A stretch of 64,000 nucleotides of DNA from an uncultured Clostridia bacterium (GCA_934120315.1 CAKOTX010000003.1:71236-135235), one strand, 5' to 3'. Positions 652-63,616 are shown, counted from the stretch's first letter. Translations and numbers: made by a program. The notes: generated by a model from the sequence alone, not told the origin.

Positions 652-652
652 T

Positions 653-1543: not shown

Positions 1544-1615
1544 TTTTGCAATCCCCTTTTTTCTTAATTTTTCCTTATTCTATCACTGTTTTACAGGTTT
1601 GTCAAAACAAAAAAA

Positions 1616-1677
1616 TGACAATTTGGTGTCGGTGTTTTTCTTGACAGGCGTGTCAAAAAAAACACCGACACCAAATT
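1616..1677. repeat. Intergenic repeat family, inverted pair (27-bp hairpin arms, 4-nt loop)
   Basis: tgacaatttggtgtcggtgtttttcttgaca ggcg tgtcaaaaaaaacaccgacaccaaatt. The arms are complementary with one mismatch. It lies directly after the stop (1687) of the upstream minus-strand gene. Confidence 0.85.
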
Positions 1678-1686
1678 ACCAAATTA

Positions 1687-2505
1687 TTATTTTATCTCAA
1701 TAGCTCCTACTCCACCATCAATGTCTATATATGTTTCTCCATGTCCATATTCGTTTCCATCTGTTGTTTCCTTGCCATCAATAGTAATAGAACCTATGCC
1801 TTTATTTACTTTAATTTTATAGTTTTCAGTTCCATCAGTTAGATTAAAGTTTATTTTTCCAACACCAGCCCTTACATCATTTCTGCCTGTTAATTTAGCA
1901 TTCAAAGTAAACTCTCCAACTCCTGTATCTAATTTCAAATTATTCATAGCACCAGATAGGATTTCAATTTTTCCAGCTCCTCCATCAATTTCTGATTTGT
2001 TAGATACATTCAATTCTTTTATTACAACTTTTCCAGCACCCATATCAAAATCAAAATTTCTTGTTGCTAATTCTTCTATACTAATTTCTCCTGCTCCTGC
2101 ATCTATCTTCACACTGTCCCAAAGCATATTTGCTGGCACATATAATACAATTTGGCTCGCATCATTTCTATTTGAAAACCAATTTTTTGATTTATCTTTT
2201 ATTATCAACTGACTTCCTTCTTGATTGCATTTAACATTCAAATTATTAGTTTCTACTCTAAGCATTTCACCATTTTTTATTTCTAAGTTTGATGCACTTA
2301 GTTCTATTTTTAATGTTGTAATATCTGTATTTCCTATTGTAGAATAGATCTCTTCTTGACTCTCTATTATTTGGGCATCTTTAGCAACCCCACTAAGCCA
2401 AGCCACTCCCCACAATATGCTTAATGCGACTGAAACAATATTCATTATTATAAATGCAGCTAATGCTATAGCTAAATATTTTATTACTTTTTGGATTACA
2501 TTCAT
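1687..2505 (-). CDS. DUF4097 / toast-rack (LiaG-like) membrane-anchored protein
   Basis: N-terminal TM helix followed by repetitive beta-strand segments (GAGEISI, GAGKVVI, GAGKIEI, GVGEFTL, GVGKINF, GIGSITI, GVGAIEI). There is a 4-nt ATGA overlap with the upstream LiaF-like gene. Confidence 0.65.
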   Translation of the reverse strand: MNVIQKVIKYLAIALAAFIIMNIVSVALSILWGVAWLSGVAKDAQIIESQEEIYSTIGNTDITTLKIELSASNLEIKNGEMLRVETNNLNVKCNQEGSQLIIKDKSKNWFSNRNDASQIVLYVPANMLWDSVKIDAGAGEISIEELATRNFDFDMGAGKVVIKELNVSNKSEIDGGAGKIEILSGAMNNLKLDTGVGEFTLNAKLTGRNDVRAGVGKINFNLTDGTENYKIKVNKGIGSITIDGKETTDGNEYGHGETYIDIDGGVGAIEIK

Positions 2506-3182: not shown

Positions 3183-3195
3183 TATAAAATCTCCT

Positions 3196-3885
3196 TTATT
3201 TTACATAGTAATGTCTAATTGGTTTTAGACTGTCATCTAATTCATAGCAAATTGGATTTCCTGTTTGAATTTCTAGTTTTACTATGTCTTCATCACTAAT
3301 ATCATCAAGATATTTCATTAAACCTCTTAAACTATTTCCATGTGCTGCTATTATTATATTTCTACCTTTTTCTAAATCTGGTTTTATGTCTGTATTCCAA
3401 TATTCCATAACTCTTTTAATTGTGTCTATTAAATTTTCTGTTTTTGGTAGTTCATCTTCTGTTAAGTCTTTGTATTTAGGGTCATTCCCTGGATATCTTG
3501 GATCTGTTACTTCTAATTCTGGTGGTCTTACATCTGAGCTTCTTCTCCAAAGCAATACTTGTTCATCTCCGTATTTTTTTCTTGTTTCATCTTTGTTTAA
3601 ACCTTGTAAAGCTCCATAGTGTCTTTCATTAAGTCTCCAGCTTCTCTTAATTTCGATATTTTCTTCTCCCATTTCTTTTAAAATTAAGTCTAATGTATGT
3701 TCAGCTCTTTTTAAAACTGATGTATATGCTAAATCGAAATGATATCCTTTTTCTTTTAATACCTTTCCAGCTTCTTTAGCTTCTCTTACTCCTTGTTCAG
3801 ATAATTCTACATCTGTCCATCCTGTAAATCTATTTTCTAGATTCCATTCGCTTTGTCCGTGTCTTACTAATACTAATTTTATCAT
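3196..3885 (-). CDS. gpmA: 2,3-bisphosphoglycerate-dependent phosphoglycerate mutase
   Basis: N-terminus [26 protein letters not shown] with the catalytic RHG motif; family-typical length of 229 aa. Confidence 0.93.
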
Positions 3886-3940
3886 AAAAATACCTCCTAA
3901 TTTTAATCTAACATGAATTATATTTCACATCGTAAAAAAA

Positions 3941-4975
3941 TCAACCTTCTTCTGCAATTTTTGTCTTTTTATCTCTCATCGTATTTATAATAACAATTAC
4001 TGCACTAATTAAGATTAATGAATAGAAATTTATTCCTCTACTTAATAACATTGCACTACTTAGCATTGCTTCTGGAAATACATTTCTGAATATTCCTAAA
4101 AATCCACCTTCACTTACTCCAACTGCACCTGGTGATGGAATTCCTGATACTGTTGCATATAACACAGCTTGTAATGTTAATACTTGCCATAAATTATATG
4201 TATTAAATCCTAATGCTCTATATACCCAATATGGTACACTGTAATACGCTAATAATTGTACTACTGTAGTCAAAACGGTTTTTAACATTAATTTTTTATG
4301 TTGTTTTACATATACCGCACTTTCTTGATAAGACGCTAATTCTTTTTCCATTTTTTCTTGTTTTTTTTCTATATTTTTAACTCTAAAAAATTTCAATGTT
4401 TTTAATGCAAAATTTATTAATCCTCTTGATAATTTTTTTGAAAATATTCCTATAATCAACAATGCTAATGCTGATGAATTTAATGTAATTCCTAATATAA
4501 ATAAATATATCAATCCTGATTGTAATACATCAAAATGTATAATTGCACTTATAATTCCCATTGTTATTGTTACAATCTGAAAACTACAAAGTTGCATCAT
4601 TAATGCTAATGTTGAATATGCAACTGGAATATCATCTTTATGCATATAATAAATTTCCATTGGTTGTCCACCACTTGCTGCTGGTGTTATAGAACTAAAG
4701 AAAAATCCAATCAATGTATATTTTATATTTTTTAAAAATGTTGATTTTTGCTTGAATTCCTTTAATACTCTTCCTATATTTATTGCCTCACACATGATGT
4801 ATATAAACATTGCAATAATTCCTATGAATATATATCCTTTCTTTGCACTTGCTGCTGCAGTTAATATTTGTGAGACATCTTGGTCTTTAAAAATTAATAC
4901 AAATGTTAATACAATTAATAGAATAAATACAATTATATTCATTATTGTTTTTTTAGTTTTCTTAGTCTTTTCCAT
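3941..4975 (-). CDS. Flippase-like / lysylphosphatidylglycerol synthase TM-region family membrane protein (UPF0104)
   Basis: 344 aa polytopic membrane protein with the SITPAASGGQP motif typical of the LPG_synthase_TM family. Confidence 0.6.
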   Translation of the reverse strand: MEKTKKTKKTIMNIIVFILLIVLTFVLIFKDQDVSQILTAAASAKKGYIFIGIIAMFIYIMCEAINIGRVLKEFKQKSTFLKNIKYTLIGFFFSSITPAASGGQPMEIYYMHKDDIPVAYSTLALMMQLCSFQIVTITMGIISAIIHFDVLQSGLIYLFILGITLNSSALALLIIGIFSKKLSRGLINFALKTLKFFRVKNIEKKQEKMEKELASYQESAVYVKQHKKLMLKTVLTTVVQLLAYYSVPYWVYRALGFNTYNLWQVLTLQAVLYATVSGIPSPGAVGVSEGGFLGIFRNVFPEAMLSSAMLLSRGINFYSLILISAVIVIINTMRDKKTKIAEEG

Positions 4976-5066
4976 TTCTAACTCCTATCTTCTGTTTTTT
5001 ATCTATATTAGCAAAATTTCTTAAACTTTTCAATATTCTTTAACATATCTTCATAAAATATTAATT

Positions 5067-6236
5067 TTAAAATCCAACAATTTTGTTATATGTTTCTATT
5101 GCAAAATTGTCTGTCATTCCTGATATATAGTAAATGATAGCTTTACAAAAATCTCTTTCATTTTTCATATCAAAAATAACATCATTTTTATTCGCATCAT
5201 TTCGCTTTAAGTTCCAATAGTTTGATAGCCATTTTTCAAAGCTTTCAATTACTTCTGGATTAACTGATTTATCTTTTTTGCCATAATTGTTTTTGATTGT
5301 AGAATAAATCTCGTTTATAATTATATTAAAATATCTTGCAGATGGTTTTAATCTTTCTGCTTTGTAAATATATTTGTAATTAAATTCTTTTATTTCTTTC
5401 AACATCTTAAATGTACCTTCTGAAAAGCATAAACCTTTTTCAGGAGAAGAGTTTTCACATAAATCACCTATCAAATGATTTATTATTACTGTATTGTTTA
5501 TTACTTCTTTTTGTTTTAAAATTTTATATAATTCTTCTAGCTTTTCATCTAAAATTCCTAAAGTAATTGCATCTTCTATGTCTCTACCTAGATAAGATAT
5601 TTTGTCTGCAATTTTTACTACACATCCTTCCCAAGTATATGGTGCATATTGGTTTGGATATTCATAATCATATAAATTAATATATTCTTCTCTAGGTTTT
5701 AAACAATTTTCATCAATCTCGCCACAGTGTGAAATTATTCCATCTCTTACTGCATATGTTAAATTCAAATTTTGCCAGTTTTGGTTCATATCTTGCAATA
5801 ATTCGATTTTGTCTACATATTCCATACCATTTCTTTCATGCCAAAAGGTTTCACCAATTTCTTTTTGTGATATTTCTGATAATATTCTTTCTCCAGCATG
5901 GCCAAATGGGCTATGACCTATGTCATGCCCTGTGGCTATTGCTTTGGTTAGTTCTGTATTTAATCCAAAATATTTTGCAATTGTATAACTTACTGATTCA
6001 ACATGCATTACATGTTCAATTCTTGTACATACATGATCATTTTCTGGTGAGAAAAATACTTGAGTTTTATGTTTTAAACGTCTATATGCATTGCAATGTA
6101 ATATTCTTGTGTAATCCCTTTCGAATTCTGAACGCATGTCATTTTCTCTTTTATAAATTTCTTTTTCCCTTTTGATTATTTTCTCCCAATTAGGATTGTT
6201 AGGAGTTGCTGAATATTCTTTAAATTTTCCTTCCAT
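5067..6236 (-). CDS. dGTPase-like HD-domain triphosphohydrolase
   Basis: RTRIEHVMHV and GHDIGHSPFGHAGE motifs of the dGTP triphosphohydrolase / HD superfamily. Confidence 0.75.
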   Translation of the reverse strand: MEGKFKEYSATPNNPNWEKIIKREKEIYKRENDMRSEFERDYTRILHCNAYRRLKHKTQVFFSPENDHVCTRIEHVMHVESVSYTIAKYFGLNTELTKAIATGHDIGHSPFGHAGERILSEISQKEIGETFWHERNGMEYVDKIELLQDMNQNWQNLNLTYAVRDGIISHCGEIDENCLKPREEYINLYDYEYPNQYAPYTWEGCVVKIADKISYLGRDIEDAITLGILDEKLEELYKILKQKEVINNTVIINHLIGDLCENSSPEKGLCFSEGTFKMLKEIKEFNYKYIYKAERLKPSARYFNIIINEIYSTIKNNYGKKDKSVNPEVIESFEKWLSNYWNLKRNDANKNDVIFDMKNERDFCKAIIYYISGMTDNFAIETYNKIVGF

Positions 6237-6255
6237 TTTTTCTCCTTCTTATGTA

Positions 6256-8274
6256 TTAAAATAAATTTGTCTTAATTTTATTTATTAAATAATGGCTTCC
6301 TCCAAGACTTCTTCCATTTTCAACCATACTGATAACTAGCAATTGGTTGCTATCATTGTCTGAAGTGAAGCAGTCAAACCATCCTAGAACATCTGCTTCT
6401 GCATCTTTTGAACCTTTTAATTCTGCAGTTCCAGTTTTTCCAGCAATAGTTCTTCCTTGAACTCTCATGTCTTTAGCTGTTCCTTCTTGATTTTCTACAA
6501 CTTGAATTAAGTCTTCTTTAATTGTATTAGCCGCTTCTTTTGTAAATGCTCCTTCAACTAAATATGATGTTTCAGTTCCTTCTTCTAAATATGGTTTTAT
6601 CATGTTTCCATCATTTGCAAATGCTGAATAAATAGAAGCCATATGTATTGGATTTACAAGTATTTCACCTTGACCATATCCACTATCTGCAAGAACTTTT
6701 TCATTAGAAATTTCTCCATTATTAGCATATTGTGATTTTATATTTCCTAATGTAAAATCAATGTTTTCTCCAAATTTAATTTGTTTTAAACCACTTGTAA
6801 AGCTCTTCGCACCTATTTGTAATGCTGCTTGTGCAAAATAAATATTATCTGAGTGAATCATAGCATTTTCTAGATTTTTAGGTCCACTATATGCTGTAAG
6901 AGTAGTGATATCATATTGTCCCCATCCATCTTTTTTCCAACTTAAACCACTATAAGAAAATGTATCACTTGTGCTTAACTTTCCAGTTGTTAATCCCACT
7001 GCACCTGTTACTGCTTTGAATGTTGAACCTGGGCAATAACTTTGCAAATATCTTGTAAGCATTGGCTTATTCTCATTATTTTTAATAGCATTCCATTTTT
7101 CTGTACTTAATCCTAATGCAAAATCATTTGGATCATATGATGGTGTACTAACTAATGCTAGCAATGCTCCTGTATTTGGATGCATTACTACAAAAAATCC
7201 TGCATCATTTTTTAACTCATTATATAATTTAGATTGTATTGTTGAATCTATTGTTAATTTAATAGTTTCTCCATTTTGAACATCAATTTTAGCAACATCC
7301 TTTTTTCTATTACCTTTGGCATCTTCAATATAAATTTCAACCCCATCTTTACCTTTTAATCTCTCTTCATATTGCTTTTCCAATCCAGCTTTTCCTATAA
7401 CACTAGTACTTGTATATCCTTTACCTCTGTTAGCTTTTAATTCCTCAGCTGTTATATTTTGAACATATCCAACTAAATGTGCAGCAGCTTCTCCTAATGG
7501 ATAAACTCTTGATTTAGTACTTGTTATTTTAATTCCTGGTATTTGAAGCAATTGCTCTTTAAGTTCTGTTGAATCTACCTGAACTTTTTTTAGAGGTACA
7601 AATGTATCATCTTTTACCCAAGAAGCTGACAAAGTTTTATTAATAGATTCTGCTGTTGTTCCAAGTAAATTTGCAATCTTTTCTATATTCTCATCTTTGT
7701 TTTCTCCAAGTTTTCCTGGAACAATTCCAACAGAAGATACAGTTCCAAGCCCTGCTAGCATTTTTCCATTTTTGTCAACAATACTACCTCTTTCTGCAGA
7801 AATTGTTTTAATTCTAACTTTATCATTGCTACTTAAATTGGGAAATATTAAGCTTGATTTCCAGTTTAATTGATAGCCTTTTTCTTTATCTTTAATAACA
7901 TTAGCTGTATTTTCAAACTCTATCTTGCCTGCCTCTGAATTCATTGATTGATTATATGAAATTGCATATGTTTTAGAATCTTCTTCTGCTATATTTGTTA
8001 TCTCAATTTCCATATCTGTCATATCAATACCTTCATATATATTCTTATTTCTAGATATGAAATCTTCTTGTGAAATTTGCTCTTTTGAATCATCTGTTAA
8101 TAAATTATACATATCTTCATAATTTTGCTCATTAACCAGTGAAACGTATTTATTTAATACATCTTCTGGCTTACTATTATCTTTTGTTAATTTATATGCA
8201 ATTATTCCTCCTGCTGTTGCTGCTACTATTACAATAATTGCTACAATAATTCCAATTATAACTTTTTTGTTCAT
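6256..8274 (-). CDS. Class B penicillin-binding protein (NTF2-like MecA_N domain plus transpeptidase)
   Basis: STFK (CPGSTFKAV), SDN (HSDN) and KTGTA motifs with an N-terminal signal anchor. The ORF-track start at 8295 is a TTG inside the repeat element. I prefer the ATG at 8274 (MNKKVIIG...), which has AAAGGA 8 nt upstream. Confidence 0.85.
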   Translation of the reverse strand: MNKKVIIGIIVAIIVIVAATAGGIIAYKLTKDNSKPEDVLNKYVSLVNEQNYEDMYNLLTDDSKEQISQEDFISRNKNIYEGIDMTDMEIEITNIAEEDSKTYAISYNQSMNSEAGKIEFENTANVIKDKEKGYQLNWKSSLIFPNLSSNDKVRIKTISAERGSIVDKNGKMLAGLGTVSSVGIVPGKLGENKDENIEKIANLLGTTAESINKTLSASWVKDDTFVPLKKVQVDSTELKEQLLQIPGIKITSTKSRVYPLGEAAAHLVGYVQNITAEELKANRGKGYTSTSVIGKAGLEKQYEERLKGKDGVEIYIEDAKGNRKKDVAKIDVQNGETIKLTIDSTIQSKLYNELKNDAGFFVVMHPNTGALLALVSTPSYDPNDFALGLSTEKWNAIKNNENKPMLTRYLQSYCPGSTFKAVTGAVGLTTGKLSTSDTFSYSGLSWKKDGWGQYDITTLTAYSGPKNLENAMIHSDNIYFAQAALQIGAKSFTSGLKQIKFGENIDFTLGNIKSQYANNGEISNEKVLADSGYGQGEILVNPIHMASIYSAFANDGNMIKPYLEEGTETSYLVEGAFTKEAANTIKEDLIQVVENQEGTAKDMRVQGRTIAGKTGTAELKGSKDAEADVLGWFDCFTSDNDSNQLLVISMVENGRSLGGSHYLINKIKTNLF

Positions 8275-8289
8275 TTTTATTTTCCTTTC

Positions 8290-8354
8290 TGTCAATTTGG
8301 TGTCGGTGTTTTTCTTGACAAGCTGTCAATTTGGTACCGGTGTTTTTCTTGACA
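8290..8354. repeat. Intergenic repeat family, direct tandem pair (2 x 31 bp, 3-bp spacer)
   Basis: tgtcaatttggtgtcggtgtttttcttgaca agc tgtcaatttggtaccggtgtttttcttgaca. The two units differ only at GTGTC versus GTACC. Confidence 0.9.
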
Positions 8355-8371
8355 TTTTTAGTAATAAAATC

Positions 8372-8407
8372 GGGCCTCTATCCCTTTTGTCTGTAAGATA
8401 AAAGCCC
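8372..8407 (-). terminator. Putative rho-independent terminator of the surface-protein gene
   Basis: On the minus-strand RNA, GGGCUUUUAUC pairs with GAUAGAGGCCC (11 bp including 2 G-U wobbles, so pairing is better on the minus strand). A U-rich GAUUUUAUU tract follows. Confidence 0.45.
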
Positions 8408-8428
8408 AACATATAATTTTCTATTTTT

Positions 8429-11400
8429 TTACTTTATGTTCCATACATTGTATGTTTGATTTCCTCCATAGTTTGACATATTTCCACCTGTTAATGTTTT
8501 AGTTCCTGCTTTTTCTCCATAGAATAATACACTTGATGATAATGTTACTAGTACTCTTACTCCAAATGCATAATCACCATAGTGTCCTACTGAAAGACTG
8601 CTAGGATTAAAACGAGGCATACCTTTTGATGTGTCATTATATCCTGCTAACCAATAATATGAATTATTATCAATAATATTCATATATCTTGCATTTGAAT
8701 ATATTTTTTGGAATACATCATCTACATATAAATCTGTACTACTGGAATCTGTTCCAAGATATTTTTTATACCAACTTTCTAGCTTTGATTTACTTAATGC
8801 AATTGCACTAGTTGCTTTTAATGTTGGATTAACATAGTCGCTCCAATTTCTTATCTTATAATAAGTTGCAGACGATGAGCCTGCTAATACCTCCTCACTC
8901 AAATATGCATAAGATAATGTTCCGTGATAATAGTCTTCTGGATTTCCTGCTGATATCAATGTTACTTGGTCTCCAACTATATCAAATACTCTCCATCCTG
9001 TTACAGCACTTCCTGTTGATACATCTTTTATATAGTTGTTTGATGAAGAATATGGTGTTGCATTTCCATTTCTACTGCTTCCTACTGTAAATCCTCCAAA
9101 TTGAAATGCTGTTGATGGTAAACTTGTGCTTCCATTTGGCGTTTGTAATCCATCTGATGTTGAACCTGTTTGAATTGCACTTATCTCTGATTGAGTCCAT
9201 GTTCCTGCATCATAATTTACGAAGTCTCCTATATGTAAAGAGTCTGTTTGATTTCCTGTTGAGTCATATATTGTTGATGCTGATACCCATGTTGGTTCTG
9301 GTTTTGGTTCTGGTTCTGGTTCTGGATCAGGGTCAGGGTCTGGTAATGGCGTTACACTTCCATATGATTTTAGGTTCCATACATTGTATGTTTGATTTCC
9401 TCCATATTTGTCCATGTTTCCACCTGTTAATGTTTTTGTTCCTGCTCTTGTTGATGAGAATAATGCTTCTGTTGATAGGGTTACCAGTGGACGGATACCA
9501 TAAGCATTCCCAACATTTTTAAATACTTGTGCTTTATCAACACTTGTTGAATTAACAACTCTATACATAAGATAATGTTCAGAAGTTGTACTAGAAGCAT
9601 TTGCTAACCAATAATTAGAATAATTATCTATTAAATTTTGGTATTTTACATAAGGTGTATCATATATTAATTGAAATGTACTAGTAGTATATACATCAGG
9701 ACTTGAAACTCCCATGTATTTTCCATACCAAGTGTCTAAAATGTTTTTTGTTAATACTGTAGCACTTTCAGCTTTCTGATTTGTATTTGTATATATATTC
9801 CAACATCTTGCCTTGTATGTACTTGCTGCTGTACTTGCAGCACTCCAATTACTATTTGCTTTTCCTGTTAGTACATACTCACCAATATATCCCATATTGG
9901 TATATCCTGAAAGCAAAAAATCTTCTGTATTACCTGCTGATATTAACGTTACCTTGTCTCCATCTATATCAAACACTCTCCATCCTGTGACACCGTTTCC
10001 TGTTGAAGTATCTTTTACATAGTTAATAGCTGAATCATATGAAGTAGCATTGCCATTTCTACTAGCTCCTGCCACAAATCCTCCAAATTGAAGTGAGTTA
10101 CTTGGTAATGATGTGCTTCCATTGGCAGTTTGCAAATCAGATTTTGCTCCAGTCTGTATTGAATTTATTTCTGTTGAAGTCCATGTTCCTGCATCATAAT
10201 TTACGAAATCACCTATGTGCATTTTTTCTTCACTTGTATTACCATAATCATAAATCTTTGATGCTTTTACCCATTCATCCACTGGAGCTGGTGGATTTGG
10301 ATCTGGGTCTACACTTCCTCCACCTTTTAATCCCCACACATTATATGTTTGACTTCCACTTATTCTGCCACCTGTCAATGTTTTTGTACCTTTTTTAGTT
10401 GCAGAAAGTAAAGCTTCCTCTGATAAATTAACTACAACTCTTATTCCCATCGCAGTTCCTTGCATTGCTGTTATTGATCTACCTGCAGGGTTGAAATTAT
10501 ATAGATATGCATAATTGTATGGAGATGGATAATAATAATATGAATTGTTATCAATTATATTCATATATTTTTCATATCCACTTTCATATATTGTTTGAAA
10601 ATCACTTGATTTTATATATTTAGTAAACCAGCTATCTTGCAATGATTTGCTATATGCCGTTGCACTAACAGCGGCTTGGTCTGTATTTACATATGCACTC
10701 CAATCTCTTTTTGTATAGCTACTAGCATCTGTAAGTTCGCTATTTATATTTCCTGTTAGCATGTATTCAGCTTCATTAGCCTCACCATAATCATTGTAAT
10801 AATCCTCTGGATTTCCTGCAGATAATAATGTAATTTTATCTCCATCTATATCAAATACTCTCCATCCAGTAACACCTGAATTCGTAGCAGAATCTTGAAT
10901 ATAATTATATGTTAAATCATATGCACTAGCATTTCCACTTTTAGATGTTCCAGCTACGAATCCTCCAAATTGATAAGCAGCTGTTGGCAAAGTAGTGCTT
11001 CCATTCGCTACTTGTAGCCCGGTTGGCTGTTTTACCTATTTGAATTGCATTTATCTCATCTTGTGTCCATACTCCAGGTTCATAATCAATAAAGTCCCCT
11101 ATGTGCAATCCATCAGCATTTGATCCAGAAGCATCATATACTTCTGATGGTTTTACCCAATCTCCATCATCTCCAGAATCATCTTCCATTGAACCTGTAT
11201 TGATATTAATATAATATTCTCTTTCTGTCTCCAAATATGTAATTTTTAACCTTGTACTTGAAGCTTTTTCAACAGTAACCTTGTTACTTCCTAAATAACT
11301 ATTTAGCTTTGCTTCAAAAAGGTCTTTTTGCAATACTGTTTTAGAATCTTCTCCCATTAGCGAAGCTGCCGCAACTCTAATCAAATTTATTTCGCTCGCT

Positions 11401-11576
11401 ATCTCATTTCCTGTTAAATCTGTCCTAACAGCATATACAATTGTTGCCATTAGAAACACCAATAACACCGCTAATATTGCATAAACTTTTTTTGGCATAA
11501 AGCTTAATTTTTGTTTTAATTTATTGCTTTTTGAATTTTCCATTTTTTCTACTTTTGGTTCTGTATAATTCATCAT
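8429..11576 (-). pseudogene. Large secreted/anchored three-module repeat protein, interrupted by a +1 frameshift near 11018..11022 (ORFs 10941..11576 and 8429..10990)
   Basis: The 211-aa ORF has a signal anchor and then begins a module (WVKPSEVYDASGSNADGLHIGDFIDYEPGVWTQDEINAIQIGKTAN). That module continues in the +1 frame as GLQVANGSTTLPTAAYQFGGFVAG, exactly matching the equivalent stretch of modules 2 and 3 (..AIQTG..LQT.NGSTSLP...QFGGF). Modules are separated by Pro/Asp/Glu linkers (DPDPNPPAP; PDPDPDPEPEPEPKPEP). Confidence 0.75.
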
Positions 11577-11693
11577 TATACGAATTTACCTCCTTTGTAT
11601 ATTTTTTCCCTTTTTACATTCTCTTTCTTCTATATTTAATCATAATCCCTCTTTTTTTTCAATACTTTTCTTGGAGTTTTTTTAGGAAATCTA

Positions 11694-11769
11694 TGTCAAT
11701 TTGGTGTCAATTTGGTGTCGGTGTTTTTCTTGACAATTTGTCAATTTGGTACCGGTGTTTTTCTTGACA
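11694..11769. repeat. Intergenic repeat family, 13-nt partial unit plus direct tandem pair
   Basis: tgtcaatttggtg tcaatttggtgtcggtgtttttcttgaca att tgtcaatttggtaccggtgtttttcttgaca. It overlaps the 3' end of cca. Confidence 0.9.
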
Positions 11770-13017
11770 ATTTTTCATCCAATTCACTCTCTCTTCATGC
11801 AGTCTACGCCCGACTTTCGCGCCTTTTTCAAGACTATATTTTTCTTGTATAAATTTACCATTAATTGCTTCAAAACACTCATTACCAATTTTCTCAAAAT
11901 TGATGTCTTCTGGATTATTTTTTCTGCCACCACTTGTCTTATCACTTACAACTATAATTTGAAGTCCATCTAGTCCTAATAAAGTCTTATTTACTCTTTC
12001 TATAAACTCAACTTTTTTAGCAGGTTTCATTTTATAAAATATTCCACCTCTCATATGCTCTTTGCAAGCTGTTTTACCACATTTAATCCAATTGTTAGGT
12101 AATTCTACCCTCTTTGCCATTTCATCTATCAATTCCGAACCTCGCTCTTCATGTCCATAATGATGCGGGTACAATTCTTTTGGTGTTGTTCCTTTTCCTA
12201 AATCATGAACCAATGCTGAAAATCTAATTTCTAATTTTCTATTTTTAGGATATTCTTTTGTTAAATTTGCCGCCATGTCTAACACGAGCATTGTGTGATT
12301 ATATGCATCTCCTTCTGGATGGTATTGCACAGGTTGCTCTACTCCAACTAAATTATTAATTTCTTTAAAATGAACATCTAAAACTCCTGCAACTTTTAGG
12401 GTATTAAAAAATATTGATGGAGCATCAGTATTCAATGCCTTTTTTAGTTCTTCAAAAACTCTTTCTTTAGATAGACTTTTTAGCTCATCTCTTAATTTGT
12501 GCATTTGTTCTAATGTTTCTTCTTCAACTTCAAAATTTAATTGGGCTACAAACCTTGCAACTCTATAAACTCTAAGTGGATCTTCTCCAAAGGCTGATGT
12601 TGTTGCTCTTATAATTTTATTTTTTATATCTTCTCTTCCATTAAACGGATCTACTATCTCTTCTGTTAGAACATCTTGAGCTATTGAATTTATTGTAATA
12701 TCTCTTCTAGCTAAGTCTTGTTCTATTGTTATGTCCGGGCTAGTATGGATTGCAAACTCTTTATGGCCTTCCCCAACTTTAACTTCTTTTCTTGCAATTG
12801 CAAATTCTTTACCTTCAAGTTCAAATACTTCAAATGCTTTTCCTTTTACTTTTGCTTCAGAAAATAATTTTTTGAATTTTTCTGAACTTAATCCAGTAAT
12901 ACAATAATCTTCATCTTCTGAATTTTTGCCTAAAAATTGGTCTCTTATTGCACCACCCACCAAGTATAGTTTTCCTCCATTTTCCTCTATTTTTTTAGCT
13001 ATTTCTTTAATATTCAT
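11707..13017 (-). CDS. cca: CCA-adding tRNA nucleotidyltransferase with HD domain
   Basis: N-terminal GGAIRD polymerase-beta nucleotidyltransferase motif, RRDITINS, and a C-terminal HD region (LVHDLGK). The last ~20 codons (CQEKHRYQIDKLSRKTPTPN) and the stop are encoded by the repeat element. Confidence 0.88.
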   Translation of the reverse strand: MNIKEIAKKIEENGGKLYLVGGAIRDQFLGKNSEDEDYCITGLSSEKFKKLFSEAKVKGKAFEVFELEGKEFAIARKEVKVGEGHKEFAIHTSPDITIEQDLARRDITINSIAQDVLTEEIVDPFNGREDIKNKIIRATTSAFGEDPLRVYRVARFVAQLNFEVEEETLEQMHKLRDELKSLSKERVFEELKKALNTDAPSIFFNTLKVAGVLDVHFKEINNLVGVEQPVQYHPEGDAYNHTMLVLDMAANLTKEYPKNRKLEIRFSALVHDLGKGTTPKELYPHHYGHEERGSELIDEMAKRVELPNNWIKCGKTACKEHMRGGIFYKMKPAKKVEFIERVNKTLLGLDGLQIIVVSDKTSGGRKNNPEDINFEKIGNECFEAINGKFIQEKYSLEKGAKVGRRLHEERVNWMKNCQEKHRYQIDKLSRKTPTPN

Positions 13018-13038: not shown

Positions 13039-13103
13039 TGTCAATTTGGGGTCGGTGTTTTTTTTGACACAATGTCAAGAAAAACACCGACCCCAAATTG
13101 TCA
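13039..13103. repeat. Intergenic repeat family, inverted pair (about 30-bp hairpin arms, 3-nt loop), GGGTC variant
   Basis: tgtcaatttggggtcggtgttttttttgaca caa tgtcaagaaaaacaccgaccccaaattgtca. The right end contains the dinB stop codon (tca = TGA on the minus strand). Confidence 0.9.
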
Positions 13104-14312
13104 CACATCCTTCAATTTTATCTTCTCTTCTGAGTTCAATTTTCCTGCCCTCGTAACACTCGAATAACCATATTTTTGTTTCAACTCATCTACAACTTTA
13201 TCAAGTTTTTCTTGTTTCTCACTTTGATTATTATCAAAAAATGATAATTGTTTTTCACTCTTCTCTATAAGATTATCTACTCTCATTCCAATTAGTCTTA
13301 TTTGAGTACCTTGCTTATACATCTCATGCAAAAGTTCTTTTGCCACATTATAAATTTCTTTTGTACTTGATGTTGCTTCCAACATTTTTCTCTGATGTGA
13401 TGTATCTTCAAAGTTTTTGGTTCTTAATTGAACATTTACAACATTTGCTAGCATATCATACTTTCTTAATCTGTATGTAACTTGCTCTGTTAAGGCTAAC
13501 AACACTTCTTCTAATTTAGCCATTTCACTTACATCCACTGGCAATGTTGTAGAATTTCCTATTCCTTTTGGCTTCTCAAATTGATAATGTACTTCTGAAT
13601 TATCAATTCCATTTGCATATTCCCACATCATTGTACCATGTTTTCCAAATTTTTTAGTCAATAATTCTTTATCGGTGTTTGCTAATTGTCCTATTGTTTT
13701 TATTCTCATATTATATAATTTAGGAATTGTTTTTCTTCCTAACATTAATAAATCTGATACTGGCAATGGCCACATTTTTTGTGGAATTTCATTTTCAAAT
13801 AGAGTATGCACTCTATCTGGCTTGGTAAAATCTGACGCCATCTTCGCTAATAACTTATTGTGAGCCACTCCAACATTCACTGTAAATTTTAGTTCTTCTT
13901 TTACTCGTTTGTTTATTTCATATCCCTTCTCTAGCAGACTCGTTCCTCTTAGATAATTTGTCATATCTAAGAAACATTCATCTATACTGAATCGTTCTAT
14001 TTTATCTGTATATTGTAACAATAATTGATATAATTTATTCGAATTTTCTTTATATAATTTGTAATTCATAGGATATACTTGTAAATTAGGGCATTTCATT
14101 CTTGCTTGATATAGCGTTTCTCCTGTTGATATTCCAAAAATCTTGGCTTTTGGACTTTTGGCTAACACTATTCCAGATCTTCTATTTTCATCTCCACCTA
14201 TTACTGATGGAATTTCTCTTATATCTATTTTGCTTCCGTTTTTCAGCATTTCTACTGCTGTCCAACTCAAAAATGCATTATTAACATCTACATGCAATAT
14301 TTGTCTTTCCAT
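13101..14312 (-). CDS. dinB: Y-family DNA polymerase IV (DinB/UvrX-like)
   Basis: ILHVDVNNAFLSW and SIDECFLDMT motifs. I place the start at M32 of the ORF-track protein (ATG 14312) because a consensus promoter and SOS box occupy the upstream 31 codons. Confidence 0.85.
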   Translation of the reverse strand: MERQILHVDVNNAFLSWTAVEMLKNGSKIDIREIPSVIGGDENRRSGIVLAKSPKAKIFGISTGETLYQARMKCPNLQVYPMNYKLYKENSNKLYQLLLQYTDKIERFSIDECFLDMTNYLRGTSLLEKGYEINKRVKEELKFTVNVGVAHNKLLAKMASDFTKPDRVHTLFENEIPQKMWPLPVSDLLMLGRKTIPKLYNMRIKTIGQLANTDKELLTKKFGKHGTMMWEYANGIDNSEVHYQFEKPKGIGNSTTLPVDVSEMAKLEEVLLALTEQVTYRLRKYDMLANVVNVQLRTKNFEDTSHQRKMLEATSSTKEIYNVAKELLHEMYKQGTQIRLIGMRVDNLIEKSEKQLSFFDNNQSEKQEKLDKVVDELKQKYGYSSVTRAGKLNSEEKIKLKDV

Positions 14313-14327
14313 AATATCACCATTTTC

Positions 14328-14356
14328 ATTATAAAACAGTTGTTCTTGCCTGTCAA
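14328..14356 (-). promoter_or_regulatory. Sigma-A type promoter of dinB with an embedded LexA (SOS) box
   Basis: Minus strand reads TTGACA (14356..14351), 17 nt, TATAAT (14333..14328). The spacer contains GAACAACTGTTT (14345..14334), matching the Firmicute LexA box GAAC-N4-GTTY. Confidence 0.7.
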
Positions 14357-14367
14357 TATTGTGGCAA

Positions 14368-14392
14368 TAAAAAAACAGGCATTTCTGCCTGT
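14368..14392 (-). terminator. Rho-independent terminator of rny
   Basis: Minus strand reads ACAGGCA GAAA TGCCTGT followed by a run of eight T, immediately after the rny stop at 14395. Confidence 0.8.
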
Positions 14393-14394
14393 CT

Positions 14395-15936
14395 CTATTT
14401 TGCATAATCTACAACTCTTGTTTCTCTAATAACATTTACTTTGATTTGTCCTGGATAATCCATTTCTTCTTCAATTCTCTTAGATACATCTCTTGCAAGT
14501 AATGTCATTTGATCATCTGAAATTTTCTCTGGTTTTACGATAATTCTAACTTCACGACCAGCTTGAATTGCAAATGATTTTTCAACACCGTCAAATGAAT
14601 CTGCAATAGATTCAAGATTTTCTAATCTCTTTATGTATGCTTCTAATGTTTCTCTTCTTGCTCCTGGTCTTGATGCTGAGATTGCATCAGCAGCTTGTAC
14701 TAATACAGCTTCTAATGTTTGTGGTTCAACATCTCCATGATGAGCTTCTACTGCATTTATTACAAGTGGATTTTCTTTAAATTTCTTTAAAATATCAACA
14801 CCAATTTGTACGTGTGTACCTTCCATATCATGGTCTAGTGCTTTTCCAATATCATGTAATAAGCCTGCTCTACGTGCAAGTTTTGGATCTAATCCAAGTT
14901 CTTCTGCCATAATTCTTGCTAAGTTTGAAACTTCAATTGAATGGTTTAATACATTTTGTCCATAACTTGTTCTGTATTTTAATTTTCCTATTAATTTGAT
15001 AAGTTCTGGATTTAAACCAATTACTCCTGTTTCTAATGCTGCTCTTTCTCCTTCAGATTTAATTGTTTCAGATAGTTCCTCCTTAGCTTTTTCAACCATT
15101 TCTTCTATTTTAGCTGGATGAATTCTACCATCATCAATTAATTTTTCAAGTGCTATTCTTGCAACTTCTCTTCTTAATGGATCAAAACCTGATAAGATTA
15201 CTGCTTCTGGTGTATCATCTATTATCAAATCAATTCCAGTTAATGTTTCTAGTGCCTTTATATTTCTTCCTTCTCTACCAATAATTCTTCCTTTGATATC
15301 ATCTGATGGAAGTGGTACTATTGAAACTGTTGTTTCTGCAGAGTGATCTGCTGCACATTTTTGAATTGCATAACTTATTGTTTCTTTAGCATTCTTTGTA
15401 GCTTCTTCTTTGACTTTTTGTTCTAAGTCTCTGATTAAAGCTGCTTTTTCAGCTGTTATATCTTCTTCTACCTTTTTTAACAACTGTGTTTTTGCTTCTT
15501 CTTGGCTTAAGTTTGCAATTCTTTGTAGAACTTCTACTTGTTGTGCTTTCAAGTCCTCAATTTCATTTTCTCTTTCTTTTAGAGCTTGTTCATCACGTTC
15601 TAATTCTCTCTCTTTTTTCTCAAAATTATCTGAACGTCTTTCTAAGTTTTCTTCTTTTTGAATAATTCTACTTTCTTGTTTTTGAATTTCGCCTCTTCTT
15701 TCTTTAATCTCTTGATCTAACTCGTTTCTAGCATTCATAATTTCTTCTTTTGCTTTGAAGATTTCTTCTTTCTTTAAATTTTCTGCGTCTATTTTTGCTA
15801 GTTCAACTAATCTTTTTGCTTCTTGTTCTGCACTTTCAATTTTAGATTCTGCAATTTTCTTTCTTATTATCATTCCGATAAAAATTCCAACTGCTAATGA
15901 GATTAAGATAGTGGCTACTATGATTAATGTTTGCAT
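14395..15936 (-). CDS. rny: Ribonuclease Y
   Basis: N-terminal TM helix, long coiled coil, KH domain ([15 protein letters not shown]) and HD domain (LLHDIGKA). The start is taken at the second ATG (15936), 7 nt after GAGGTG; the ORF-track start is 15942. Confidence 0.93.
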
Positions 15937-34658: not shown

Positions 34659-35138
34659 TTAGTTTTTATTTAATAGCAATTTTTTCATCTTCACAATATC
34701 ATAAAACGGAATGTTGATTCCTCTTTCAGCTAACTCTACAACCCTAAGAGATGTAATGATAACGTTATCTCTAACCGTAGTTGGAATTTCAACATCTATA
34801 TTCGAATTAACATACTTATTTTCTATGTATTCTTCTGTTGTTGGAAATATATTTTGAATTAAAAATACAGCCTTTTTTCCTAATACATTTCCAAATACAA
34901 AGTTGTAAACAGGTCTTTTTCCACTTTTGGCTTTTTTTGTTTCATAAAGTTCCTTATATTTTTCATATTTTGTAGATATTGGAACAAACCAAATTATTTC
35001 TTTATTTTTTCTATCTCTAAAACAAAAATAACATGGTCTTTTATTTCCATTTTCTTTATTTACCATTAATCCATAATCCTTAAACACATCAAAAAACTCA
35101 TCTTTTATAAAATAAAATTTTCCATCTTCTATTACCAT
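34659..35138 (-). CDS. Type III toxin-antitoxin system toxin, ToxN/AbiQ/CptN-like endoribonuclease
   Basis: 159-aa protein with a ToxN-like layout: KFYFIKDEFFDVFKDYGL, KRPCYFCF, WFVPISTKYEKYK, LIQNIFPTTEEYI. A tandem RNA repeat array plus a leaky terminator lies immediately upstream on the same strand. Confidence 0.72.
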   Translation of the reverse strand: MVIEDGKFYFIKDEFFDVFKDYGLMVNKENGNKRPCYFCFRDRKNKEIIWFVPISTKYEKYKELYETKKAKSGKRPVYNFVFGNVLGKKAVFLIQNIFPTTEEYIENKYVNSNIDVEIPTTVRDNVIITSLRVVELAERGINIPFYDIVKMKKLLLNKN

Positions 35139-35206: not shown

Positions 35207-35309
35207 ACATTTTTCCACCTGCACATTTATATCTCGCAAGCAGGGTTGCGGTTCACATTCTCTCACCTATAAATTTATATTTCGCAAATAGGGTTGCGGT
35301 TCACATTTT
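35207..35309 (-). ncRNA. Type III antitoxin RNA: 2.1 tandem 48-nt repeats (ToxI/CptI-like)
   Basis: Minus-sense repeat 1 (35309..35262) is aaaatgtgaaccgcaaccctatttgcgaaatataaatttataggtgag. Repeat 2 (35261..35214) is agaatgtgaaccgcaaccctgcttgcgagatataaatgtgcaggtgga. A partial third repeat, aaaatgt, follows. 40 of 48 positions are identical, and compensatory changes CCTAT/ATAGG versus CCTGC/GCAGG are present. Confidence 0.75.
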
Positions 35310-53028: not shown

Positions 53029-53733
53029 CTAATCAATAAACTGATTTAATAAACTATAATATTCTGTCATCCTATTTAAATTTGTAAATTGTATTTTATC
53101 TTCTTTGATTTCCCAAGAACTTTTATTATCCTCTAAAAACTTCTTTATCTTTTCTATCTTAGTAACTTTTTCATTTAATTTGCTATTTTCATCTTTTACT
53201 TTTTCGATTAAAGAAACATATTGAGCCTTCATAGAATCACTTAACATGATTGTATTATACAAATTTTTATAATAATCTTTTCTATTAGAAATATTTTTAG
53301 CATCAATATTCTCGGTAATCTTACTCTCGCTTGTTAAACTTTGCAATTCAGATACACAATTTTGACCTTTTTCTTTATATTCACTTATAATTTCTTCAAC
53401 AGCCTTTAAATCCTTGTTCTGCATATTTTGAGATGAAAAAATATTATTAGGATTTATTCCTGAATTCAATTCATCAATCTCTACATATATATTCTTAAGA
53501 TTAGATACATATTCTTTTACAGCTTTTTCTACAACCGCATAATTTTTCTTAGTTTTAATTGAAAAACTAATATTCTCATTTGCAATATCTGATTGCAATA
53601 TTTTATTTGTCTCTTCTGACAACAACTTCATTTGTTCAGAATTAAAATTATTGAAAGAATATGCAATAACTCCTATGGCTACTATTAATATTACTAATAT
53701 TATAATTCCTATTATAGTTTTTTTATTTTCCAT
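53029..53733 (-). CDS. Hypothetical membrane-anchored protein
   Basis: N-terminal TM helix (IIGIIILVILIVAIGVIAY) followed by a coiled-coil-like Lys/Glu/Asn-rich ectodomain. Confidence 0.45.
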   Translation of the reverse strand: MENKKTIIGIIILVILIVAIGVIAYSFNNFNSEQMKLLSEETNKILQSDIANENISFSIKTKKNYAVVEKAVKEYVSNLKNIYVEIDELNSGINPNNIFSSQNMQNKDLKAVEEIISEYKEKGQNCVSELQSLTSESKITENIDAKNISNRKDYYKNLYNTIMLSDSMKAQYVSLIEKVKDENSKLNEKVTKIEKIKKFLEDNKSSWEIKEDKIQFTNLNRMTEYYSLLNQFID

Positions 53734-53749: not shown

Positions 53750-53780
53750 TGTTAATTTGGGGTCGGTCCTTTTTTTCGCA
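53750..53780. repeat. Degenerate single unit of the intergenic repeat family (GGGTC variant)
   Basis: tgttaatttggggtcggtcctttttttcgca compared with tgtcaatttggggtcggtgttttttttgaca. It lies directly after the glyQS stop. Confidence 0.5.
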
Positions 53781-60753: not shown

Positions 60754-60818
60754 CTTTTCTACCTCCAATTTTATATAACAACACCAAAAATCTAGATAAA
60801 AAATAATTTTTTATTTAC

Positions 60819-61289: not shown

Positions 61290-61308
61290 TCAAACATCCC
61301 TCCATGAT

Positions 61309-61935: not shown

Positions 61936-61947
61936 GCTTTTCTCCTC

Positions 61948-62277
61948 CTACATTATCCCTTGTAATACAAGCCAATCAAAAAATCCTTCTAATAATTGTT
62001 CGAAATCTGTTTTTGAAATATATGACTCTTTATTGGTCATTTGGCTAGCTAAAACCGGATTTTCAATTACTCTTTTTGTAGGTGTTCTTAACATGAATTT
62101 TGTTATTGCTTCTAATTCTATTACTGTTGTTGAACTATCTGACACATAACATTCTACCATCCATGGCTTTTTTGGTTCTTCCTTTTGTGGTTGTAACCAC
62201 GCATTTGCTACATTTCCATGTAAAAGCATAATCAAAAGTATACTGATTGCTATTCCTATTTTTCTAAATTTTTTCAT
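61948..62277 (-). CDS. Hypothetical small secreted protein
   Basis: Signal peptide with a VANA-W cleavage-like site; 109 aa. RBS AAGGAG precedes the ATG. It is the first gene of a four-gene minus-strand cluster. Confidence 0.45.
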   Translation of the reverse strand: MKKFRKIGIAISILLIMLLHGNVANAWLQPQKEEPKKPWMVECYVSDSSTTVIELEAITKFMLRTPTKRVIENPVLASQMTNKESYISKTDFEQLLEGFFDWLVLQGIM

Positions 62278-62359: not shown

Positions 62360-62477
62360 TGTCAATTTGGTGTCGGTGTTTTTCTTGACAGCCATGTCAA
62401 AAAAAACACCGGTACCAAATTGACAAAAAAATGACACCCAACTATCTTATAACCATTGATTGTGTAATCTTACATTC
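62360..62477. repeat. Intergenic repeat family, inverted pair plus about 50-bp conserved tail (upstream of prx)
   Basis: tgtcaatttggtgtcggtgtttttcttgaca gcca tgtcaaaaaaaacaccggtaccaaattgaca, followed by the tail aaaaaatgacacccaactatcttataaccattgattgtgtaatcttacattc. Confidence 0.85.
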
Positions 62478-62640
62478 AAAAAATCACTTTTTACATTTTG
62501 GGCATTTTTCTTCTAATAATTTAAAATTACAACATACTTTTTTCACGAAAAAATTTGTAGTCAAACACACATTTATATTACAAAATAAAAGTAACAAAAA
62601 CTTCCCATCAAAATACAATATGATGAAAGGAGTTTTTTAT

Positions 62641-63315
62641 ATGGACTATGAATTAATGATGAATGGAACTGTAAAAATTGGTCAACATGCTCCAAACTTT
62701 GAAGCAGAAACTACATATGGGCCTGTCAGCCTTGAAGATTACAAAGGGAAATGGTTAGTATTTTTCTCACATCCAGGAGATTTTACCCCAGTCTGTACAA
62801 CAGAAATGATTGCATTTGCAAATGCCTGCCCATACTTTGAAAAATTAAACACTTGCCTATTAGGATTAAGCATAGACAGCAATCCATCACATCTTGCATG
62901 GATGCGTGACATTTACTGCATGACAGGAATCGTTTTACCATTTCCAATTGTTGCAGATAGAAATGGATCAATTGCCAGAAAATATGGCATGATTTCTAAT
63001 GATATTAGTTCTACAGAAACTGTTAGAAATGTCTTTGTAATTGATGATAAAGGTATTGTAAGAGTAATTCTAGTATACCCTTTAAACATAGGAAGATTTA
63101 TACCAGAAATCCTAAGAATCATTCAAGCTTTGCAAATGGCAGACTGCTCAAAAGGTTCTACTCCTGCAAATTGGATGCCAGGGCAACCTGTTATTGAAAC
63201 ACCTCCAAAAACATATCCTCAATTGCAAGAAAGATTAAATTTTATTGAACAAAATAATAACGGAATGAGCTGGTATTTAAGTTTTAAAGAACCACCTAAA
63301 ATATGTGACAAGTGA
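62641..63315 (+). CDS. Peroxiredoxin (Prx6-like, AhpC/TSA family)
   Basis: APNFEAETTYG..WLVFFSHPGDFTPVCTTE peroxidatic Cys motif. The start is at ATG 62641, 8 nt after AAAGGAG; the ORF-track start at 62431 would read through the repeat element. The stop TGA (63313..63315) is the first 3 nt of the downstream repeat copy. Confidence 0.88.
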   Translation: MDYELMMNGTVKIGQHAPNFEAETTYGPVSLEDYKGKWLVFFSHPGDFTPVCTTEMIAFANACPYFEKLNTCLLGLSIDSNPSHLAWMRDIYCMTGIVLPFPIVADRNGSIARKYGMISNDISSTETVRNVFVIDDKGIVRVILVYPLNIGRFIPEILRIIQALQMADCSKGSTPANWMPGQPVIETPPKTYPQLQERLNFIEQNNNGMSWYLSFKEPPKICDK

Positions 63316-63441
63316 CAATTTGGTGTCAATTTGGTACCGGTGTTTTTCTTGACAGCCTTGTCAAGAAAAACACCGGTACCAAATTGACAAAAAACTAGCA
63401 TCCAATTATCTCGTAACCGTTGGCAGTGTAGTCTTGCCTTC
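63313..63441. repeat. Intergenic repeat family, 13-nt partial unit plus inverted pair plus about 50-bp conserved tail (downstream of prx)
   Basis: tgacaatttggtg tcaatttggtaccggtgtttttcttgaca gcct tgtcaagaaaaacaccggtaccaaattgaca, followed by the tail aaaaactagcatccaattatctcgtaaccgttggcagtgtagtcttgccttc. It has the same orientation and tail as 62360..62477. Confidence 0.88.
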
Positions 63442-63616
63442 AATTTTTTTGTTGGATTTTTTTGGAGATTTTTTACACTTTTTTTGAAATTTTAAATAAT
63501 AAAAAAAGCAAAGAATTTTCAGTTCCTTGCTCTTTAATTAACATATTTTATTAATCTTTTTAATTTTTTATCTTGTATCTTTTTTAATTCTTCCAGATAC
63601 AATTCAGGTATTTTAA

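Follow-up and report, generated by a model that had tools for sequence, protein, structure and literature searches.

REP/REPIN-like intergenic repeats and a likely cognate Y1 tyrosine transposase in an uncultured gut Clostridia lineage

Introduction

To our knowledge, work on repetitive extragenic palindromic (REP) sequences, REPINs and REP-associated tyrosine transposases (RAYTs) has been carried out almost entirely on Proteobacteria. The hallmarks of REP-RAYT systems are a transposase gene flanked by repeats, repeats that co-vary with the enzyme, and vertical inheritance (PMC2817692, PMC3116915, PMC5581495). Here we describe a family of 31-nt repeat units in a 64,000-nt stretch of DNA (GCA_934120315.1, CAKOTX010000003.1:71236-135235; hereafter the window), a piece of bacterial chromosome with 28% GC from an uncultured human-gut Clostridia lineage. 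With a probability of roughly 80%, we interpret these units as lineage-specific, REP/REPIN-like, non-autonomous intergenic elements served by a REP-associated-type Y1 tyrosine transposase of the HUH (histidine-hydrophobic-histidine) class.

The closest described systems are the REPtrons, namely E. coli yafM/TnpA-REP with its bacterial interspersed mosaic elements (BIMEs) and the REPINs of Pseudomonas fluorescens (PMC2817692, PMC3116915, PMC3479197). Like these, the present family consists of short dispersed extragenic repeats, mostly dimers, and like REPINs its inverted dimers form long hairpins. Further features in common are a Y1 HUH gene found in a single context between repeats of opposite orientation, co-variation of repeat and enzyme, a fixed locus that is inherited vertically, an overlap between repeats and the 3' end of the transposase open reading frame (ORF), and an enzyme whose best structural match is the E. 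coli RAYT. Unlike in REPINs, the inverted arms are 3-4 nt apart instead of tens of nt, and head-to-tail dimers are common. Unlike the RAYTs of REPtrons, the enzyme has about 260-290 aa with a helical C-terminal extension of about 120 aa, and it scores below the NCBIfam RAYT cut-off. The host also differs from the Gammaproteobacteria of described REPtrons, being a spore-forming gut Clostridia lineage of 28% GC.

Two other groups of Y1 proteins resemble the enzyme. Subclass 2.1 of TnpA-Y1 comprises longer Y1 proteins with a C-terminal helix-turn-helix (HTH), near whose genes no REP-like sequences were reported (Quentin et al. 2018, PMC6006769). The TIRYT proteins of "TIRtrons" (Di Nocera et al. 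2013, PMC3733652) are, like those of subclass 2.1 and the protein described here, longer RAYT-like proteins with a C-terminal helical or HTH-like extension. The inverted repeats on either side of such genes differ from classical REPs; some are moderately abundant and dispersed, as dimers or clusters. Unlike TIRtrons, our units lack GGGGWSAS and the protein has no Bac_DnaA_C, HTH_23 or HTH_28 domain match; unlike subclass 2.1, it comes with a dense dispersed repeat family. Group 1 RAYTs, which include those of Clostridia, show a weak repeat association (Bertels et al., PMC5581495). Membership of the present protein in subclass 2.1 or Group 1 was not confirmed.

With the IS200/IS605 transposases (IS608, ISDra2) the enzyme shares the HUH and tyrosine catalytic fold, and hairpin-forming end DNA is the likely recognition feature. 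In contrast to those insertion sequences, the transposase is not multi-copy, it carries YVHRN instead of Y---Q, it has no tnpB, and the repeats have been amplified rather than the gene. We regard the system as a variant of the REP-RAYT kind: its mechanism class is familiar, but its repeat anatomy, enzyme subtype and host group differ from those described. It combines a co-varying repeat family of simple modular anatomy with a conserved enzyme locus across a clade of low-GC gut Clostridia enzymes, and would allow the upkeep of repeat populations by domesticated HUH transposases to be tested in a second model, phylogenetically remote from the first.

The repeat units and their architecture

We searched both strands of the window with the pattern TGTCAATTTGGNNNCGGTGTTTTTNTTGACA, allowing up to three mismatches. 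This yielded 12 near-perfect 31-nt units, starting at 1616(+), 1651(-), 8290(+), 8324(+), 11705(+), 11739(+), 13039(+), 13073(-), 62360(+), 62395(-), 63324(+) and 63359(-). The pattern had no match in 100 dinucleotide-preserving shuffles of the window. One degenerate copy with five mismatches lies at 53750-53780, so that units are found at seven loci in all. Each unit consists of TGTCAA, a 19-nt asymmetric core (TTTGG-NNN-CGGTGTTTTT-Y) and TTGACA. The core contains a variable triplet (TGT, TAC or GGT) and one C/T position. Within the window, paired units are separated by GC-rich linkers of 3-4 nt and are arranged either head-to-tail (8290, 11705) or inverted (1616, 13039, 62360, 63324).

The first-pass annotation of this DNA, made from the sequence alone, had proposed such a family with three core variants, a 3-4-nt unit spacing and both pair types, and all of this holds; the family is real, with 12 units and one degenerate copy where shuffled sequence gives none. 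It had also reported an identical 13-nt partial unit at 11694 and 63313. A partial unit is indeed present at both sites, but it is 11 nt long and differs at one position (TGTCAATTTGG versus TGACAATTTGG). Its use as a sign that whole composites are copied is a weak argument, because partial units are general at the outer ends of composites: across the family, the first 11 nt of the unit are often repeated at the outer flank.

To describe the family beyond the window, we took a census of 816 kb of related DNA (individual stretches are cited below by L numbers), which held 118 non-redundant composites. Inverted pairs accounted for 50 of these, every one with unit(+) followed by unit(-) and the TTGACA ends facing; the reverse arrangement was never seen (0/50). 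The remainder comprised 23 head-to-tail pairs, one triple and 44 nominal single units, many of which are pairs whose partner has a 1-nt indel. The earlier statement that units always come in pairs thus gives way to a mixture in which true single units and the triple also occur. Linkers are 3-4 nt throughout the family and have 64-72% G+C in a 28% G+C genome. Both arms carry the same core triplet in 44/50 inverted pairs (40% expected), and they differ at position 25 in 41/50. The inverted pair therefore has a polarity, with a left and a right half. Density is high in the window, where seven loci fall within 64 kb, and in L102, where 11 kb contain five.

An inverted pair is predicted to form a very stable hairpin (-30.5 kcal/mol, z = -11). 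In head-to-tail pairs, the sole good local structure is a hairpin at the junction, TTGACA-loop-TGTCAA. This junction hairpin is the feature common to both pair types, and in inverted pairs it extends to a stem of about 31 bp. Because units are joined by a 3-4-nt linker, every junction can be folded as TTGACA-loop-TGTCAA in single-stranded DNA.

The architecture bears on one alternative, that the composites are miniature inverted-repeat transposable elements (MITEs) derived from a DDE-type insertion sequence, with the 31-nt arms as terminal inverted repeats tipped by TGT...ACA. Inverted pairs do resemble two terminal repeats placed nearly back to back, and the unit ends are TGT and ACA. Yet head-to-tail and single forms are common, at about 40% of composites, which is unexpected for an element with terminal inverted repeats, and neither comparison of a filled with an empty site showed a consistent target-site duplication. 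No DDE transposase bounded by units was found in the 816 kb of related DNA, where the sole associated enzyme is a Y1 HUH protein. We regard a MITE origin as extremely improbable.

Other explanations for the repeats were rejected. A CRISPR array does not fit a spacing of just 3-4 nt, and integron attC sites do not fit dispersed, non-arrayed copies that lack RYYYAAC/GTTRRRY cores. Spo0A, TnrA and sigma-54 motifs are lost across the core variants.

A Y1 transposase gene flanked by the repeats

Related genomes carry a Y1 HUH gene flanked by units of the window's type; the first-pass annotation had proposed a search for Y1 transposases as a check. In L050 the transposase ORF (7786..8652) encodes 288 aa (P0001/P0123). 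An inverted pair lies 243 nt upstream of it and a head-to-tail pair overlaps its 3' end. This arrangement of an upstream inverted pair and a 3' head-to-tail pair is found in L004, L029, L050, L091, L094 and L102-L107; in L050 and L102, the upstream units are of both orientations, and two (-) units lie at the 3' end of the gene. A strong sigma-70-like promoter (TTGACT-17-TATAAT, about 8850-8890 in L050) directly follows the upstream inverted pair, at a distance of about 10 nt or less, and precedes the transposase gene. The same gene and context occur in a metagenome-assembled genome (MAG) from the Hadza (L004, 91%) and in L029, L091, L094, L067 and L102-L107. All the related DNA that we retrieved contained no second gene context for the transposase, and no tnpB lies next to the gene.

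The transposases of the related genomes are 282-288 aa long (about 260-290 aa among homologues). The L050 protein matches Pfam Y1_Tnp with 42.6 bits against a cut-off of 23. We found 783 homologues and aligned 35, in all of which H60, H62 and Y119 are invariant. RAYTs carry the motif NP(L/V)(R/K)xG next to the tyrosine (Nunvar 2010, PMC2817692). The sequence that follows the tyrosine here, Y119-VHR-NPEKAG, fits this motif at N, P, K and G and has E instead of L/V. An AlphaFold model of the transposase has a pLDDT (predicted local distance difference test) of 74.8, with high values in the N-terminal domain. Its best structural match is 4ER8, in which the E. coli RAYT binds a REP hairpin (E 9e-7, target TM 0.69), followed by the IS608, ISDra2 and IS200 transposases (2A6O and 2XM3 are among the fold matches). 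The C-terminal extension of about 120 aa is helical and gave weak hints of HTH_7, HTH_8 or HTH_19, each in one or two of the 35 members. No domain match supported its assignment to Bac_DnaA_C, HTH_23, HTH_28 or another HTH family.

Co-variation of repeats and transposase

We compared eight transposase lineages, consisting of the window's type and seven homologues that are 50-58% identical, each in its own contig. L108, L109, L110 and L111 have two or three (+) units before the gene and two (-) units after it, in each case of a distinct but related 31-nt sequence. L115 has more diverged repeats with the same (+) upstream and (-) downstream arrangement. Two direct units lie only upstream of the transposase in L114, and units are found only downstream of it in L113. 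Related but distinct units occur on both sides of the gene in 6/8 lineages. Examples of the homologue units are TGTACATTTGGTGCCGGTTCTTTTTTGTACA, TGCACATTTGGGACCGGTTCTGTTTTGTGCA and GGGACATTTGGTACCGGTTCTTTTTTGTCCC. Changes in the terminal 6-bp stems of such units are compensatory, and the core TTTGG-NN-CCGGT is retained. The local unit variant is scattered in L111 and L113 as well, where stretches of 17-21 kb contain it at seven or more intergenic loci. Several homologues have odd C-terminal tails (..KKEPAPNA..QNGTGTKC), which are their own repeats in translation. As far as sequence comparison goes, the repeats and the transposase co-vary across species, which is a hallmark of REP-RAYT systems.

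The gene order MurC-SpoVG-SipL-YunB-transposase is kept in L102, L111, L113 and L115, although the transposase protein is just 55-58% identical across these species. This conserved position argues for long vertical inheritance. Within the conserved neighbourhood of L113, the transposase gene is inverted. These results suggest that a REP/REPIN-like family maintained by a domesticated RAYT-type enzyme is the simplest account of the repeats.

Host range and variation between strains

A strict 24-base version of the pattern was found in 2 of 185,579 species-representative genomes, "uncultured Clostridium sp. UMGS1852" and the Hadza "uncultured Clostridia" MAG. UMGS1852 has seven exact matches; the Hadza MAG has 13, all on one contig. 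The pattern also occurred in 87 stretches of human-gut metagenome contigs and had no match in viral contigs. In these searches, the repeat family is restricted to one gut Clostridia lineage. UMGS1852 is about 90% identical to the window across syntenic genes. The three stretches of the Hadza MAG that we compared are non-syntenic with the window and have the repeats alone in common with it. A search of the window at the Rfam gathering thresholds returned a tRNA-Trp only, and a permissive Rfam search over the pairs gave only sub-threshold noise from eukaryotic miRNA hairpins.

Copies vary between close relatives, being present, absent, single or double among strains that are 95-99% identical. 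This is the presence/absence variation for which the first-pass annotation had suggested looking, and the elements are probably mobile. L102 and L103, which are 98.5% identical, differ by two units in one array. L028 and L093 are 95% identical to window 1-8290 and lack window 8290-11849; in both, the penicillin-binding-protein (PBP) and CCA-adding-enzyme genes are about 60 nt apart with no repeat between them. Relative to these strains, the window has two insertions, a 3.3-kb two-gene cassette ending in the 8290 pair and an insertion of about 100 nt with the 11694 composite. We considered whether the cassette (8355-11608) could be a simple unit of left end, cargo and right end, and rejected this: native intergenic DNA separates it from the 11694 composite, and at least two events are therefore required.

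Similar differences are found elsewhere. At one site, the single pair of L015 and L034 corresponds to two pairs around a 1.3-kb cassette in L009, and L056 contains another 2.2 kb there. UMGS1852 lacks the transposase gene, and the flanks of the gene are connected in that genome by a single inverted pair, made of a shortened unit. When flanks were clustered, one flank was joined to up to four different partners across a composite, and flanking segments were seen in all four combinations (A-X, B-X, B-Y and A-Y). Composites border several strain-specific gene blocks and are candidate entry and exit sites of accessory gene cassettes in the chromosome. The exact position of composites at block boundaries, the four flank combinations and the replacement of the transposase by a single pair allow a bolder idea, which we consider unlikely: composites would be working sites of cassette exchange, where whole genes are captured, deleted and shuffled between housekeeping genes through the HUH transposase or by recombination at junction hairpins. 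If true, a REP-RAYT pair in Firmicutes would have a role like that of an integron.

Metagenome contigs L045, L018, L037, L060 and other short ones end exactly at a composite, so the family probably breaks short-read assemblies of this species. Strain-level variation in uncultured gut species, and breaks in their assemblies, could be followed with the repeats as a practical marker.

Placement relative to genes

We surveyed 97 non-redundant composites with called neighbours in the related DNA. Almost all inverted pairs (n = 42), which are symmetric, lie -3 to +6 nt from a stop codon, and 18 of them are between convergent genes. Single units and head-to-tail pairs lie 5-26 nt from a start codon, with the TGTCAA end toward the start in 30/37 and 17/18 cases, respectively.

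Such placement is what one would expect if the copies were host-selected RNA-level elements (3' stabilising hairpins, RNase III sites, terminators or 5'-untranslated-region elements) that spread by recombination, the transposase link being incidental. The fixed orientation of units near starts and the stability of the inverted-pair hairpin also fit this explanation. However, the hairpins have no T-run and a terminator scan reported none at the composites, for which reason intrinsic terminators were rejected as a candidate. Head-to-tail pairs and single units have no stable fold, Rfam yields generic hairpin noise only, and the neighbouring genes are functionally unrelated. An RNA-level role would also have to accommodate copies gained and lost among 95-99% identical strains and units that flank and co-vary with a Y1 transposase, mostly on both sides of the gene, in 6/8 independent lineages. 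We consider this alternative improbable.

The fixed positions beside ribosome-binding sites (RBSs) and the inverted repeats formed by the terminal hexamers could also point to arrays of operators or binding sites for a global regulator or nucleoid protein, with TGTCAA...TTGACA as half-sites. Against this stand the 19-nt core, which is asymmetric, the many copies between convergent genes, and a presence of sites that varies among near-identical strains. No function is common to the downstream genes, which encode PBP, CCA enzyme, ABC ATPase, peroxiredoxin and hypothetical proteins, and the bracketing of the transposase gene in several species would go unexplained. This makes a binding-site array very improbable. 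The terminal TTGACA was also considered as a -35 box and rejected: there is no consistent -10 element at 16-18 nt, and window units abut the RBS. A few flanks do have a good promoter just past a pair, at 1605..1577 and upstream of the transposase gene.

Points against the assignment and a possible mechanism

The suggestion of the first-pass annotation, that these are REP/BIME-like or IS200/IS605-derived palindromic elements, is supported by the flanking Y1 transposase, the co-variation and the strain polymorphism, but the unit falls outside the canonical definition of a REP. Several points weigh against the REP/REPIN-like reading. Classical REPs have a GTAG or CGTC head and a longer stem (PMC3733652); the present unit has no GT(A/G)G or CGTC head, a stem of 6 bp only and a 19-nt asymmetric loop. 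A lone unit has a predicted fold of -1.6 kcal/mol (z = -0.7), no better than shuffles. The window contains no transposase gene, as had been noted at first pass (no transposase or RAYT). The cognate enzyme is probably single-copy and encoded outside the window, and is known here from related genomes only. That the window adjoins the transposase locus on contig CAKPGU010000004.1 was considered and rejected, with DNA 7.5 kb past the boundary showing no match to the window. The enzyme's single NCBIfam match is the equivalog NF047646 REP_Tyr_transpos, at 56.3 bits under a cut-off of 80. Sequence searches of the Protein Data Bank with the transposase, by single sequence and by profile, gave no match, so that the link to 4ER8 comes from the fold only.

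Two further points concern position. The unit(+) strand is the C-rich strand in 53/64 single or head-to-tail arrays, a bias that is inseparable from gene-strand bias in the present data; GC skew is strongly negative throughout the window and nearly all its genes are on the minus strand. The tight placement beside stop and start codons is unexplained by a transposition model alone. Purifying selection in a compact genome could account for it, as could a target preference or co-option of the copies as RNA hairpins. Finally, hairpin recognition on single-stranded DNA, tyrosine cleavage, the cleavage sites and the strand used are proposed by analogy with IS608 TnpA and E. coli TnpA-REP.

On the REP/REPIN-like reading, junction hairpins in DNA that is briefly single-stranded would be recognised by the transposase, whose tyrosine would make the cut. 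The enzyme would next copy or move units or unit pairs into other intergenic sites. Transposition of this kind would explain the fixed orientation of single and head-to-tail units, the matching inverted arms, and gain, loss and copy-number change between strains. Once in place, copies act as recombination or indel hot spots that border strain-specific cassettes, and they occasionally rewrite gene ends. Inverted pairs 0-6 nt after stops may have been co-opted as 3' RNA hairpins.

Repeat loci in the window

The inverted pair at 1616..1681 consists of unit(+) 1616-1646, a GGCG loop and unit(-) 1651-1681. It follows the minus-strand gene 1687..2505, 5 nt past the stop, and precedes the start of an ABC-ATPase (ATP-binding cassette) gene, at 1543, by 72 nt. 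At the orthologous site in L028 and L093, whose flanks are 95% identical, the pair is far more diverged than this background predicts. A strong sigma-70-like promoter (1577-1605, minus strand, TTGACA-17-TAGAAT with TG) lies upstream of the ABC-ATPase gene, about 10 nt or less from the outer end of the pair.

The head-to-tail pair at 8290..8354 (+) has units 8290-8320 and 8324-8354 joined by AGC. With its TGTCAA end it directly adjoins the RBS of the PBP gene (minus strand, ATG 8273), at 16 nt from the ATG, and the upstream stop is 74 nt away. This pair is one boundary of the 3.3-kb strain-specific cassette. The cassette (8429-11576) encodes an 853-aa protein made of three internal repeats of about 310 aa (period about 950 nt, no Pfam domain) and also contains a 211-aa ORF related to part of that repeat.

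At 11694..11769 (+), a partial unit (11694-11704) precedes a head-to-tail pair with units 11705-11735 and 11739-11769 and an ATT linker. The first-pass annotation had placed all copies between genes, which fails here: the CCA-enzyme ORF (11707..13017) reads through both units, and its last ~21 codons and stop come from the repeat. The final ~21 residues are therefore repeat-encoded. The native C-terminus of the CCA-adding enzyme has been lost, and the protein now ends in ..CQEKHRYQIDKLSRKTPTPN*, 21 residues translated from the two units (11707-11770). The CCA gene of L028 has no repeat at the site and ends in ...HEERVKWMKDIEKNN (...KDIEKNN). The window's exact CCA protein is present in Hadza and other gut metagenomes, on at least 13 metagenome contigs.

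The inverted pair at 13039..13103 (13039-13069(+), CAA loop, 13073-13103(-)) overlaps the stop of the DinB-like gene 13101..14405 and precedes the CCA-enzyme ATG by 21 nt. When folded as single-stranded DNA, it is the pair with the predicted hairpin of -30.5 kcal/mol given above. In L028 the site is occupied by a lone degenerate unit. A degenerate single unit, 53750..53780 (+), follows the stop of a glycyl-tRNA synthetase gene by 4 nt and precedes the start of gene 53029..53733 by 16 nt. Degenerate units of this type (GGGGTCGGTCCTTTTTTTC) recur at L057, L077 and L089.

The inverted pair at 62360..62425 (62360-62390(+), GCCA loop, 62395-62425(-)) has arms of different core types (TGT versus TAC) and sits between divergent genes, 61948..62277(-) and a peroxiredoxin gene (+). 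It is kept in L017 (98% identical) and missing, together with two small genes (window 61290-62588), from the UMGS1852-like contigs L002, L013 and L030. On the other side of the peroxiredoxin gene, at 63313..63389, a partial unit (63313-63323) is followed by an inverted pair (63324-63354(+), GCCT loop, 63359-63389(-)). The partial unit supplies the TGA stop of the peroxiredoxin gene, and the composite is conserved in L002, L013, L030, L033, L043 and L076. The clear copies had been described as lying within a few nt of a stop codon. This is so for the inverted pairs at 1616, 13039 and 63313, but not for 62360, between divergent genes, or for 8290 and 53750, beside start codons.

Extensions of about 55 nt adjoin both inverted pairs around the peroxiredoxin gene, a 1-Cys type on the plus strand whose true start is at about 62641. 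The first extends over 62426..62479 (+) and is 85% identical to the second, 63390..63443 (+), which is 3' of the gene. With a 24-nt motif from the extension at zero mismatches, other strains match at the peroxiredoxin locus only, and the flanks in L043 show three copies. Rfam gave nothing above noise for the extension. Its membership in the repeat family is uncertain because it is known from the peroxiredoxin locus only.

Other repeats in the window

Two other regions of the window contain tandem repeats. Ahead of the minus-strand gene 34659..35138, the leader region contains two 48-nt copies at 35207-35302 that are 81% identical and both have a CCTGC...GCAGG stem; they have no Rfam match at E <= 0.1. 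At 58441-60768, next to the tRNA-Trp (58304-58378), a gene contains fourteen tandem copies of a 78-nt (26-aa) repeat and encodes a 775-aa surface-type protein of the DUF285/LRR kind. This gene has no composite at its boundaries and is wholly missing from the UMGS1852-like L002, L013 and L030.

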